From assembly GCA_963604715.1 (NCBI GenBank), contig CAVCSV010000009.1, forward strand, positions 1,927-65,926: 64,000 nucleotides of DNA, in the 5' to 3' direction. Source of the stretch: Limosilactobacillus gorillae (GTDB taxonomy: Bacteria > Pseudomonadota > Alphaproteobacteria > CAAGCB01 > CAG-977). This document shows, in pieces, positions 52,656 to 55,506 of this stretch (positions within the stretch are counted from its first letter, which is position 1; every line of letters begins with the position of its first letter). The notes below the pieces were generated by a model. It worked only from the letters and a program-made list of their open reading frames with translations. It was not told the origin of the DNA and ran no database searches. The position numbers and the translations under genes were made by a program.

Positions 52656-53648
52656 ATGTCCAAATCCATTGCCGACTTTATGGATGCGTCCGTGAAAAGC
52701 TACGCGTGCGGGCGCGACGCGCAGGAAACCATGGGAACGTTGCAAAAGGCTTTTGTCGCTTCCTCCAAACGCAAGGCGGGCAAGGAAAAGGAAATTTTCG
52801 CCGCCATTCTGGAACCCGTGATGAAAACCGCGCGCGGTCGTGAAACCATGGAATCCTTGGCGGATTTGGGCTACAAGTTCAAATTCGAGGTCGGTAATTT
52901 CGGCGGCAGATGCAACGCCGATTCAAAAACGGTTTTTTTGAATCCGAATTACGACAACGCATTTTTGTCGCACGTTTTGGTGCACGAGGGACGGCACGGT
53001 ATTCAAGCGTCTTTGCAATCCGCTAATGCGCCCGTTTATTACGAAACGAAAACGGCGGATTTTTTCCGTATGCGTCAAGCCATCGAAGCCGACGCCTGCG
53101 CGCATCAGTCCGCCTTTGTTTATGAATGCAAAGAAACAGCCCCCGAAATTTACAAACAGTTCAAGCAAGCGGGCTATCCCATGCTGACCGCTTATGAAAA
53201 GGAAATGGAAGCGTCGGGCGACGAAAAGAAAGCCATGCGGGCAAGCTTTGAATCGTGGTACGACTACAAAGCGTTCCGTCAATACTACGACAACTTTCAC
53301 AAAAACATTGTCGGACAGCTGGCTGACTGCGGCAAGGACGAAAAAGACCCGACATTTTTTTCCAAGGACTACCCCGTCAAGGACGTCCTCAATATGTGCG
53401 TGTATCAGGGCAAACCCTATATGACGGCGGAATTTTTGAATTCCGACAAAGCGTATTCCGTTCCCAAAAAAGACGCAAAGGAAATCAAGGGCATGCTGGC
53501 GGATTACGCGAAATCCGTCGCGGGGGCAAAGCTTGACACGTCAATCGACACAATGGCTTTGCGCGACGGCACGATGCGCATCGTCAAATCCGCAAGCCGT
53601 CAGCCGAATGCGGTTGTTGCGGCTTTGAATCAAAACAAAGGACGCTGA
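52656..53648 (+). CDS. HExxH-x2-Q...EADA putative zinc metallopeptidase-like protein, paralog B1 (no signal peptide)
   Basis: MSKSIADFMDASVKSY... VLVHEGRHGIQ ... IEADACAHQ ... GKPYMTAEFLNSDKAY. 330 aa. Confidence 0.7.
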   Translation: MSKSIADFMDASVKSYACGRDAQETMGTLQKAFVASSKRKAGKEKEIFAAILEPVMKTARGRETMESLADLGYKFKFEVGNFGGRCNADSKTVFLNPNYDNAFLSHVLVHEGRHGIQASLQSANAPVYYETKTADFFRMRQAIEADACAHQSAFVYECKETAPEIYKQFKQAGYPMLTAYEKEMEASGDEKKAMRASFESWYDYKAFRQYYDNFHKNIVGQLADCGKDEKDPTFFSKDYPVKDVLNMCVYQGKPYMTAEFLNSDKAYSVPKKDAKEIKGMLADYAKSVAGAKLDTSIDTMALRDGTMRIVKSASRQPNAVVAALNQNKGR

Positions 53649-53649
53649 A

Positions 53650-54651
53650 ATGTTGGATTCGGTGAAAAAATTTTTGCAAAAACCCTTTAAAAAGTATGCT
53701 TGCGGGGAAAAAGCGGCGCAGGCGCGACAGACTTTGCAGAACACATTCACCGCGTCGTCCGCAAAATCCGCCGCCGATGAAAAACGGCTGTTGGGCGATG
53801 TTTTGGAAACGCTGAACAAAACAAACAGCGGGCGCGAAACGTTGGAAAACCTGTCGGATTTGGGATACAAAATTCAATTTCAGAATTTGGGCAAGCAGTT
53901 CGGCGGATACTGCAATTACGACGACCGCCTTATCGTGCTGAACCCGACGCGTTCCAAAAACTTTTTGGCGGTTGCCGTCGTGCACGAGGGACGGCACGGA
54001 ATTCAGTTCGCTTCGGAAAAGGAAAACGCGCCGATTTTCGAACAAACGCGTGTCGCCGACATGTACAGAATGCGCAAAGCGATAGAAGCCGACGCCTGCG
54101 CGCATCAGGCGGCGTTCGCTTACGAATGCAAAGACATCGCCCCCGAAGTGTACGCCGAACAGAAGCGGGATTATCCGATGCTGACGGCGTACGAAACGGA
54201 ACTGAACAAAACGGGTGATGAAAAGAAAGCCATGCAGGCGGCGTTCAAATCGTGGTACGATTTTCCGTATTACCGCGATTTGTACGACGAATACTACAAG
54301 GACAACGGCATCAAAGCCATGGCGGAAATCGGCAAACAGCAGAAAAATCCGACTTTGTTTTCCAAAGAATACCCTGTCAAGGATGTTGTCGATTTGTGCG
54401 TGTTTCGGGGCAAGCCGTACATGACGGCGGAGTATCTGAATTCCGACAAACCGAACGCGCTGACCGCCGAAGCCAAGCGGGAAATCAAGTCTGTTTTGGC
54501 GGATTACGCGAAAGCCGTTCCGAACGCCAAACTTGACAAGTCCGTTGACAAAATGGCGACGCGCGACAAGGACGGAAAAATCCTTGAACCCGCAAAAACG
54601 GCTTCGAACGCCGCCGTTTTGGCAAAATTCACGCAGGGCAGGGGGTGCTGA
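53650..54651 (+). CDS. HExxH-x2-Q...EADA putative zinc metallopeptidase-like protein, paralog B2
   Basis: MLDSVKKFLQKPFKKY... VVHEGRHGIQ ... IEADACAHQ. Start 1 nt after the B1 stop. Confidence 0.7.
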   Translation: MLDSVKKFLQKPFKKYACGEKAAQARQTLQNTFTASSAKSAADEKRLLGDVLETLNKTNSGRETLENLSDLGYKIQFQNLGKQFGGYCNYDDRLIVLNPTRSKNFLAVAVVHEGRHGIQFASEKENAPIFEQTRVADMYRMRKAIEADACAHQAAFAYECKDIAPEVYAEQKRDYPMLTAYETELNKTGDEKKAMQAAFKSWYDFPYYRDLYDEYYKDNGIKAMAEIGKQQKNPTLFSKEYPVKDVVDLCVFRGKPYMTAEYLNSDKPNALTAEAKREIKSVLADYAKAVPNAKLDKSVDKMATRDKDGKILEPAKTASNAAVLAKFTQGRGC

Positions 54652-55506
54652 ATGACGGAACGAAAATCCGATTTCGAATGTCTGTCAAAGCTGAATATGT
54701 CGCTGTTCGCGATGAACGGGGCGGACAGGGAAAATTTCGGCGAACTGCTGCGGACGGTTTATGACGCGCCGCACGGACGCGAAGTGATGAACGAAACGGC
54801 GTTCAAAGGCTATACGTTCATGTACGACGTGATGCCGGGGGTCAACGGGGCGTGCGATTTCGAAAGTAAAACCGTCAAGCTGGACGCGTATCACCGTCAA
54901 TGCGACCTTGCCCCGATTTTGGTGCATGAAAGCGCGCATGTTTTGCAGGTGGCGCGGCTGGGCGAAAAAACGGACAGCGCCGCCGAATTCATCAATACTT
55001 TGAACCCGCGCGATTTTATCAAGCTGAATCGCGCGTTCGAAGCGGATGCGTGCGCGCATCAAGCCGCTTATGCGTACCAGATGAAAGACAAAAATCCCGC
55101 CTTGTTCGAAAAAGAAATGCAAACGCCGATGACGCAGGCTTATGCCGCCGAAATGGAAAAATCGGGCGATGAGGTCAAGGCGATGCAGGCGGGCTTTCAA
55201 GCATGGTACGGCTATAAAAAATATCAGGACGCGTATGAAAAACAATTTGTTTTGCAGCTGACCTCAAACGCCAAAAAACACCCGCTGACGCAAGGGATAA
55301 CGGGCAAGGACATTGCGGCGCTGTGTCTGTCGGGCGGCAAGCCGTACATGACCGCCGACTTTATCGACAAAGCGGAAAACGTCGCCGTGTCAAGCGAAAC
55401 AAAGGCGGCGTTGGGCGCAATCGGAAACGGTCTGCCCGTGCGGGGAAAAGCGCAAACCGTCAATCCCGCTTTGTTAAAAGCCGCGGTTCAAACGGCGGGA
55501 CGCTAA
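54652..55506 (+). CDS. HExxH-x2-Q...EADA putative zinc metallopeptidase-like protein, paralog B3
   Basis: ... ILVHESAHVLQ ... FEADACAHQ. Its ATG directly follows the B2 TGA. Confidence 0.7.
   Translation: MTERKSDFECLSKLNMSLFAMNGADRENFGELLRTVYDAPHGREVMNETAFKGYTFMYDVMPGVNGACDFESKTVKLDAYHRQCDLAPILVHESAHVLQVARLGEKTDSAAEFINTLNPRDFIKLNRAFEADACAHQAAYAYQMKDKNPALFEKEMQTPMTQAYAAEMEKSGDEVKAMQAGFQAWYGYKKYQDAYEKQFVLQLTSNAKKHPLTQGITGKDIAALCLSGGKPYMTADFIDKAENVAVSSETKAALGAIGNGLPVRGKAQTVNPALLKAAVQTAGR

Follow-up and report, generated by a model that had tools for sequence, protein, structure and literature searches.

Tandem DUF6782 putative metallopeptidase genes with a shared basic C-terminal tail, a possible sorting signal, in an alphaproteobacterial gut lineage

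The 64-kb stretch of DNA analysed here, referred to throughout as the window (contig CAVCSV010000009.1 of assembly GCA_963604715.1), carries between positions 52656 and 55506 three abutting paralogous genes on the + strand, which we call B1, B2 and B3 and which are the subject of this paper. The open reading frame (ORF) list places B1 (330 aa) at 52656-53648, B2 (333 aa) at 53650-54651 and B3 (284 aa) at 54652-55506, and each encodes a putative zinc metallopeptidase of the family DUF6782. The three proteins share conserved catalytic residues, the absence of an N-terminal export signal and a short basic tail at the C terminus. A previous reading of this DNA, made from its letters alone (the sequence-only reading), had described three abutting paralogs at this site, and the ORF positions and both junctions are as it claimed.

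Organization of the B array

B1 and B2 meet at CGCTGAAATG, with a gap of 1 nt, and B2 and B3 meet at TGCTGAATG, with a gap of 0 nt; because the junctions are this short (0-1 nt), the three genes are probably translationally coupled. B1 and B2 are 52% identical, and B3 is ~30-35% identical to either of them. All three products contain the motif HExxHxxQ, which reads HEGRHGIQ in B1 (52983-53006, +) and B2 (53983-54006, +) and HESAHVLQ in B3 (54925-54948, +), and all three contain the motif EADACAHQ (53085-53108, 54085-54108 and 55039-55062, all +). The back-translated pattern of the latter has exactly 3 matches in the 64 kb, compared with 0 expected from 100 shuffles. The GKPYMTA and WY motifs that had been noted as common to the three proteins are indeed present in B1, B2 and B3.

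Some details of the sequence-only reading need to be modified. EADACAHQ had been called invariant; this is true within cluster B, but in cluster A, a second group of three paralogs in the window that is discussed below, only EADA is kept. Its distance downstream had been given as 28 aa, whereas the interval from the Gln of HExxHxxQ to the Glu of EADA is 26 residues for both B1 and B2 and, with a 4-residue insertion, 30 for B3. Finally, the V/I-x-L-N motif ascribed to all three proteins is present in B1 and B2 but not in B3, which reads VKLD.

The N-terminal regions contain no recognizable export signal: within the first 75 residues of B1-B3 there is no Sec-like segment, no RR motif and no lipobox. 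The maximum Kyte-Doolittle score over 15 residues (KD15) in this region is 0.83 for B1, -0.03 for B2 and 0.75 for B3, which bears out the earlier statement that these proteins lack a hydrophobic N-terminal segment. What B1 and B2 do share at this end, with the three cluster A proteins (A1-A3) and many other family members, is a conserved basic peptide, MSxS[VI]x[DE]F[MFL]xK..[VI]KK[YF]xxG. It occurs in DUF6782 members both with and without a membrane segment, and it is modelled with low-to-moderate confidence (predicted local distance difference test, pLDDT, 58-68). Other DUF6782 subfamilies begin MSFLSNLFKKK or MGFLSDLF.

The array is preceded by a conserved element (52567-52622, +), delineated from the sequence and from a comparison of related loci; 28 such loci, labelled in the style L001-L027, were fetched, giving ~0.4 Mb of related sequence including the window. 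The element comprises two direct repeats of GGACAAAA (52572-52579 and 52584-52591, +, 12 nt from start to start) followed by a predicted, weak sigma-70-like promoter on the same strand, in which TTGTAA (52595-52600) and TATCGT (52617-52622) are separated by 16 nt. A consensus scan of the array region called neither a + strand promoter nor a + strand terminator, and it passed over the TTGTAA-16-TATCGT pair because only 8/12 consensus positions match. The element (~60 nt) precedes the first gene of the array not only in the window but also in L020, L001, L002 and L009; L006 and L007 retain the promoter position and a single GACAAAA. It is conserved although the neighbouring gene upstream varies between loci. 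The GGACAAAA octamer is over-represented across the window (21 copies versus 8.7 expected), and the tandem pair at a promoter position is, within the window, a property of the B array only, as seen by checking the regions before the other tail-bearing genes described below. The repeats may be the binding site of a regulator. As the consensus scan shows no + strand terminator between the B genes, B1-B3 most likely form an operon that is co-transcribed from this element.

At the other end of the array, B3 and the convergent mscS gene (55503-56459, -) overlap in their stop codons, sharing 55503-55506, and no intrinsic terminator is predicted between them. Directly upstream of B1 (51142-52391, +) there are genes for an extracytoplasmic function (ECF) sigma factor, for an 86-aa protein that has a hydrophobic segment, occupies the anti-sigma position and has no Pfam match, and for a Spy/CpxP-like periplasmic protein, the last recognized by a weak match to PF13801 that is below cut-off. 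This sigma module is not a conserved partner of the B array, because most related genomes have a PhoU-like gene and the phosphate transporter PitA in its place.

Family, predicted fold and evolution of the B proteins

B1-B3 are new members of DUF6782 (PF20573, 'putative metallopeptidase family'), a catalogued family without a characterised member. The PF20573 model has 241 positions and a gathering cut-off of 27 bits. B1 matches positions 5-240 with 127.5 bits (E 6.5e-37), B2 positions 13-240 with 138.4 bits (E 3e-40) and B3 positions 26-240 with 116.7 bits (E 1.3e-33). Matches far above the cut-off were also obtained for the cluster A proteins and for 66/66 diverse relatives; all six window paralogs thus match the same model, confirming the earlier suggestion that clusters A and B represent one family. 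NCBI already applies the product name 'DUF6782 family putative metallopeptidase' to at least one relative, and searches of NCBIfam and PADLOC gave nothing relevant for B1-B3. Because this uncharacterised family is the only assignment obtained, rather than a well-characterised one, the earlier reading is left standing on this point. DUF6782 itself is already in Pfam, where it has neither a function nor a solved structure; what is new here is its lineage restriction, the dynamics of its arrays and the tail that its members share.

We assessed conservation in 66 diverse family representatives and counted motifs in a larger set of 284 family proteins. The H, E, H and Q of HExxHxxQ are invariant in 66/66 representatives, and the motif is present in 281/284 family proteins. 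Across the same 66 representatives the E and one A of EADA are invariant, and the D and the other A nearly so. An AlphaFold model of B2, made with 30 homologs in the alignment, has a pLDDT of 91.4 and a predicted template modelling score (pTM) of 0.87. It consists of a helical N-terminal part, a three-stranded sheet (residues 74-97), a helix (103-121) that carries H112-E113-x-x-H116, a long helix (135-159) and a helical C-terminal subdomain; E146 of EADA lies on that long helix, the next one along, 30 residues after H116. The B2 model thus shows what is expected of a zincin-type fold, an HExxH active-site helix that follows a small beta-sheet together with similarity to known zincins, and its core has the layout of a gluzincin.

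By analogy with gluzincin architecture, we propose that the Glu of EADA (E146 in B2) is the third zinc ligand. The two His residues of HExxH and this Glu, ~30 residues further on and on the next helix, would hold the metal; the Glu of HExxH would serve as the general base; and the invariant Gln, Trp and Tyr would probably shape the active site. In our view B1-B3 are very likely metal-dependent peptidases built on a minimal gluzincin core, metal binding and activity being what we infer. For B2, the candidate catalytic residues on offer are H112, E113, H116, Q119, E146 and Y212.

The nearest sequence relatives of the family are IrrE/ImmA (M78), SprT-like proteins, DUF3920 and NleD (M91). There is no close solved structure for DUF6782 proteins, and a single-sequence search of the PDB with B2 returned only cadherin matches at chance level. 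DUF4157, which also has HExxHxxQ and is linked to toxins of contractile injection systems, was considered as a relative and discarded, since none of the 66 family members matched it.

NCBI has a record of the identical B2 protein, from a contig of 66,405 bp. Every named relative belongs to an uncultured 'Alphaproteobacteria bacterium', and the loci from species-representative genomes are titled Alphaproteobacteria, Rhodospirillales or Rhodospirillaceae; the scan that found them used the cluster-B patterns EADACAH and GDE[KV]KAM and is accordingly biased to B-type proteins. The stated sources are human gut (HGM), rumen (RUG, sheep rumen), horse faeces and other faecal material, and there are also UBA metagenome bins. 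An exhaustive profile search recovered 1314 representative clusters (50% identity) at E <=1e-3, 210 of them at E <=1e-30. No copies were found on known plasmids by tblastn with B2 and A3, and a viral fold search gave nothing relevant. The lineage appears to be flagellated, because a related genome (L027) carries flagellar rod and export-apparatus genes (flgB, flgC, fliE, fliQ, fliR and flhB, 15559-18919), which lie ~3.5 kb from a DUF6782 array. A literature search on RF32 gut Alphaproteobacteria yielded community-profiling papers only, and we therefore assign the lineage to no particular order.

Orthologs of B1 in L001, L002 and L007 are 78-82% identical, with ratios of nonsynonymous to synonymous substitution (dN/dS) of 0.14-0.19; the corresponding ratios are 0.11-0.27 for B2 and 0.16-0.22 for B3, whose orthologs are 60-68% identical. 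These values are similar to those of the neighbours mscS and ruvX and above that of gatA (0.03-0.08). Because dN/dS falls between 0.11 and 0.27 for all three, B1-B3 are functional, constrained genes and not pseudogenes. With their orthologs under purifying selection and the metal ligands kept in 281/284 relatives, there is no sign of the pseudogenisation that would have spoken against the sequence-only reading. Synonymous divergence tells a further story. In the same genome pairs it is 0.75-0.91 for B1 and up to 1.7 for B3, compared with 0.14-0.22 for gatA and 0.27-0.63 for mscS. This several-fold excess over the flanking genes suggests that B1 and B3 alleles have been replaced by recombination, rather than passing by plain vertical descent.

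The content of the array also changes. It always adjoins mscS-ruvX-gatCAB, and it consists of 1-4 genes drawn from four orthogroups, B0, B1, B2 and B3: the window has B1-B2-B3; L021, in a near-identical context, has B0-B2-B3; L001 has B1-B2; L009 has B0 only; and L002 and L007 have all four. Because the orthogroups mix between loci in this way, the duplications predate these species, with copies later lost differentially. In the sister strain GCA_003532815.1 (L020), the GatB of which is identical, B2 is split by an in-frame stop into ORFs of 167 aa and 157 aa (L020 3461-4461), and there is no B3. Records of the 167-aa fragment come from 10 contigs, and the split gene is found on three contigs from different assemblies (L020, L022 and L023); because of this recurrence in different assemblies, we take the split B2 to be probably a real polymorphism. 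Individual B copies are dispensable.

Members of the family are numerous elsewhere. There are ten or more DUF6782 copies per genome, and at least 7 domains in the 64-kb window. The sister strain has one 342-aa and one 682-aa member at a third locus, and other genomes have further arrays of 3-5 genes among ribosomal-protein, tRNA-synthetase and other housekeeping genes. Two-domain DUF6782 proteins of ~680-705 aa also exist. DUF6782 is here a large, fast-turning-over multigene family in a poorly understood gut lineage.

The C-terminal tail and its carriers

B1-B3 all end in an acid-free, basic tail: ...NAVVAALNQNKGR in B1 (53601-53645, +) and ...PALLKAAVQTAGR in B3 (55459-55503, +), both of which end in Gly-Arg, and ...NAAVLAKFTQGRGC in B2 (54604-54648, +). 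The last 14-15 residues of these proteins include no D or E and have a net charge of +2 to +3. About 80% of DUF6782 members have an acid-free basic tail at the C terminus, typically ...AAVLAK..GR. In the last 15 residues of 271 family proteins, D and E together make up 2.6%, compared with 14.5% in the remainder, and K and R make up 22%; 81% of these proteins have R as the final residue, and 56% have G just before it. A patch of Ala, Val and Leu occupies positions -7 to -12, and the rough consensus of the 271 tails is A-V-A-A-A-L-K-Q-N-G-G-R.

The tail lies outside the 241-position PF20573 model, and in the model of B2 it has a pLDDT of 38-50 and is not docked. It tracks the end of the polypeptide and not the peptidase domain. 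Thus, two-domain proteins have one tail only, and proteins of 700-750 aa, in which an extension of ~270 residues follows the DUF6782 domain, have it at the very end.

The tail is not confined to DUF6782 proteins. An M3-family oligoendopeptidase encoded in the window (PepF-like, 626 aa; 13100-14980, -; PF01432, E 1.6e-37) has a C-terminal extension of ~20 aa, ...TKTAALLKQSKTAGR, of the same type. This tail is present on 27/27 of the closest M3 orthologs (>=45% identity, metagenomic sources), with a terminal Arg in 100%, whereas the M3 homologs of named free-living Rhodospirillales (Varunaivibrio, Roseospira, Magnetospirillum, Tistlia and others) lack it, their sequences ending at ...FIDELE. Because the M3 orthologs of the lineage have the tail and those of free-living relatives do not, we conclude that it is a lineage-specific module found on unrelated proteins. 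An unannotated 383-aa neighbour of the M3 peptidase, entertained as a possible partner, proved to be phosphoserine aminotransferase. When other related loci were scanned for the tail, DUF6782 proteins were the only carriers.

Cluster A consists of three DUF6782 paralogs on the - strand (27261-28478, 28450-29571 and 29584-30717; PF20573, E 1e-36 to 8e-44) with the same type of C-terminal tail. These proteins have a hydrophobic segment at about residues 32-47 (KD15 1.7-2.0), which is short and Ala/Gly-rich and which follows the conserved basic N-terminal peptide (here MSxSVxEF..K..VKK) also seen in cluster B. As judged from its position and composition, the segment is internal and moderately hydrophobic, and does not look like a classical N-terminal signal peptide. 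The claim that cluster A is the exported version of the family is therefore not established. One speculation is that the segment enters a membrane only once the protein has been delivered.

The same strand, directly upstream of cluster A, carries genes for two small predicted membrane proteins (30746-31375 and 31526-32206, -), which have no Pfam match. They are paralogous, contain Gly/Ala-rich hydrophobic segments and end in tails reading ...ALNLKQKSGR and ...LSSLKLKANNR; tblastn found no homologs of them in 15 related loci. They probably form one operon with cluster A. Just upstream of them lies a gene for a 65-aa stand-alone helix-turn-helix (HTH) protein of the LuxR/GerE type (32310-32507, -; PF00196, E 1.4e-20), which could be the regulator of this operon. 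Directly downstream of cluster A is a Tol-Pal cluster (21209-26777, -), made up of tolQ, tolR, a tolA-like ORF, tolB and a cpoB/ybgF-like tetratricopeptide repeat gene.

The last carrier is the product of a large ORF at the edge of the window (60741-64000, +, running past the window end). It has a divergent DUF6782-like N-terminal domain (HEFQHFVQ...EATAD; hhalign probability 88%, E 2.8e-6), and no Pfam domain was found in it. Its ortholog in the sister strain (L020 9786-13556) is full length, with 1256 aa and a basic end, ...TVRKGESR. Near the C terminus of this protein there are three tandem proline-rich repeats of ~27 aa (PPMPTKGKVV.PP.NGVQ.PLAPAGA), which look eukaryote-like. The seven paralogs counted by the sequence-only reading are in fact six clear ones plus this single, very divergent domain.

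Possible roles of the tail

The tail is flexible, occurs on proteins that are unrelated, stays with the end of the polypeptide and preserves its exact terminus; in this it behaves like a signal read by another component, and we lean, with some reserve, towards a trans-acting signal of some kind. Among the roles that such an element might have, export or sorting heads our ranking, followed by a degradation or docking tag and then by a plug that keeps the zincin active site latent. That the signal directs export is a tentative suggestion. The more specific idea that the Gly-Arg basic tail is an undescribed, lineage-specific sorting signal, grafted onto the DUF6782 family, the M3 oligoendopeptidase, the small membrane proteins and the 1256-aa protein and defining a dedicated export or assembly pathway whose main cargo is a set of diversifying metallopeptidases possibly aimed at host or eukaryotic cells, is doubtful, though worth stating.

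The explanation that we put forward, and hold as a whole only provisionally, combines a metallopeptidase operon with a lineage-specific tail signal that includes export. B1-B3 would be an operon of three paralogous, active zinc metallopeptidases with a compact gluzincin-type core. They would be made without a Sec, Tat or lipoprotein signal and would end in a flexible tail, in which the Ala/Val/Leu patch is followed by K and then by ...G-R-COOH. This tail would commit a group of proteins, chiefly the DUF6782 peptidases along with the M3 oligoendopeptidase of the lineage and a few membrane proteins, to a common fate, of which the likeliest is export through a pathway that recognizes signals at the C terminus. 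The paralogs would then represent a diversified repertoire of delivered or extracellular peptidases, and genes gained and lost at one constant place in the chromosome would maintain it.

The closest known analogue of the tail is found in the substrates of alphaproteobacterial VirB/D4 type IV systems (VirF, VirE2 and VirE3 of Agrobacterium; the Beps of Bartonella), the C-terminal translocation signals of which are reportedly positively charged. Like the tail, these signals are short, unstructured, acid-poor and net positive, and they occur on unrelated proteins without N-terminal signals; the B tails resemble them in being acid-free, in their charge of +2 to +3 and in their low pLDDT (38-50) in the B2 model. 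Unlike them, with their Arg-rich consensus, the tail has a near-fixed Gly-Arg end and an Ala/Val/Leu patch at -7 to -12. The earlier proposal that cluster B proteins are secreted by a non-Sec route is not established; the conserved, acid-free, Arg-terminated tail, found also on unrelated proteins of the lineage, is circumstantial support for export or sorting.

Several observations favour an effector-like role: the expansion of the family, the turnover of its copies, the excess divergence of its alleles, a weak resemblance to NleD and the tail-type end on the proline-rich giant protein. NleD (M91, PF14891 'Effector protein') is, like B1-B3, a small HExxH zincin without a Sec signal. It is injected into host cells and uses an N-terminal type III signal; unlike that setting, no injectisome was seen in the sampled sequence. 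PF14891 (cut-off 25 bits) matched 7/66 family members weakly (best E 0.0052) and did not match B1-B3, and one two-domain protein outside the set of 66 matched at 32 bits (E 1.9e-7).

Other observations weigh against export. To our knowledge, a near-fixed terminal Gly-Arg has not been described for VirB/D4 signals. Dedicated secretion genes, of type IV, type I or any other kind, were not found in the ~0.4 Mb formed by the window and the related loci, which is a small and biased sample from incomplete genomes; the secretion-related genes in it are Tol-Pal, a TolC-like gene and flagellar export genes only. Oligoendopeptidases of the M3 family normally do housekeeping work in the cytoplasm. Were the hydrophobic stretch of the cluster A proteins a true membrane anchor with the N terminus inside, their tail would be periplasmic, a poor match for a signal that is read on the cytoplasmic side. 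Finally, a search of the searchable library for DUF6782 found no paper. A different kind of sorting, in which the tail is a cargo peptide for an encapsulin or a microcompartment, was discarded: tail-bearing membrane proteins fit poorly with it, and no shell gene was seen.

The most serious competitor to export, although on balance we think it unlikely, is that DUF6782 proteins are intracellular peptidases, acting as IrrE/ImmA-like regulators or in peptide turnover, with a tail that, as a degradation tag or as a docking or membrane-association motif, holds in check the level or place of peptidases that might do harm, the M3 enzyme among them. B1-B3 have no signal peptide, their genes have housekeeping genes and no secretion genes around them, and the tail has also been added to the normally cytoplasmic M3 enzyme; moreover, basic C-terminal tags recognised by ClpX are known, for example in MuA. 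Among sequence relatives of solved structure, the closest are IrrE and PprI, two intracellular regulators, which the family profile finds in the PDB at E 0.004-0.005, the IrrE match covering ~57 residues. The resemblance to ImmA/IrrE (PprI; M78, PF06114) extends to a G-x-[CFY]...I-x-L-N strand motif, HExxH and a Glu on the next helix ~27-30 residues later. PF06114 (cut-off 22 bits) matches 7/66 members weakly, with one match reaching 29 bits, and has no match to B1-B3 at E <=1. In contrast to ImmA/IrrE, B1-B3 lack a GAF-like domain and a gene for a partner HTH repressor; their C-terminal helical subdomain is of another kind, and they have the invariant HExxHxxQ/W/Y signature, many paralogs and the basic tail. 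Indeed, no ImmR, DdrO or Xre-type repressor or other obvious partner is adjacent, the neighbours being the ECF sigma factor, the 86-aa protein, the Spy-like protein and mscS/ruvX. The presence of at least 10 copies per genome, with copy-number variation, pseudogenes and excess synonymous divergence, would be unusual for housekeeping regulators, and we know of no degradation tag that ends exactly in Gly-Arg. B1-B3 resemble M78 and M91 peptidases and may work like them, but by sequence they fall outside both families.

A less probable role for the tail is that of a latency or pseudo-substrate peptide, its free C-terminal Arg plugging the zincin active site of its own or a neighbouring molecule, with the tail-bearing membrane proteins as tethers or inhibitors. 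There is precedent in the minigluzincin zymogens proabylysin and projannalysin, in which a C-terminal segment plugs the active site, and the structures of abylysin, jannalysin and selecase are among the weak fold matches. It also fits this idea that, wherever an enzymatic domain can be recognised in a tail-bearing protein, it is that of an HExxH zinc peptidase (DUF6782 or M3), and that the exact C terminus is conserved, suggesting recognition of a free carboxylate. However, the tail is undocked in the B2 model (pLDDT 38-50), two-domain proteins have a single tail, and the domain is far from the tail in the 1256-aa protein and separated from it by ~270 residues in the proteins of 700-750 aa. 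We regard this role as improbable.

We give slightly less credence still to the idea that these proteins are components of interbacterial toxin or immunity systems, the arrays being orphan toxin or immunity cassettes. Tandem arrays with variable copy number and allele content would be in keeping with it, as would the weak match to Tox-MPTase2 in 2/66 family members. On the other hand, no small immunity-like gene lies next to the arrays, delivery domains (Rhs, PAAR, VgrG, CdiA or similar) are lacking, searches with PADLOC and for toxin domains gave no match, plasmid and phage copies were not found, and all paralogs retain their catalytic residues, unlike typical immunity arrays. The sequence-only reading had offered a toxin or regulatory protease family as its alternative to secretion, and neither half of that alternative has gained support, there being no adjacent repressor, immunity-like gene or toxin domain. 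Least probable of all is that the proteins are not hydrolases at all but Fe(II)/alpha-ketoglutarate-dependent HExxH oxygenases that modify peptides, since B1-B3 have no match to the sequence model (IPR026337) and no context of a gene cluster for peptides that are made by the ribosome and modified after translation (RiPPs), and since, unlike in ChlH, BpmH and PflC, the proposed third ligand is the Glu of the EADA motif.

Provided that B1-B3 have peptidase activity and leave the cell, they would be candidates for effectors or for digestive enzymes in a gut lineage. If the tail is a sorting signal, it would provide a sequence handle with which to list the cargo of an unknown pathway and to find its receptor. 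Even the conservative reading yields testable catalytic residues and a testable tail.

The remaining window is occupied by core housekeeping genes, among them ftsH, tilS, glmM, serC, ispH and genes for enolase, transketolase and xerC/D-type recombinases. It also contains a tRNA (35161-35244, -), which is the sole Rfam match in the whole window.

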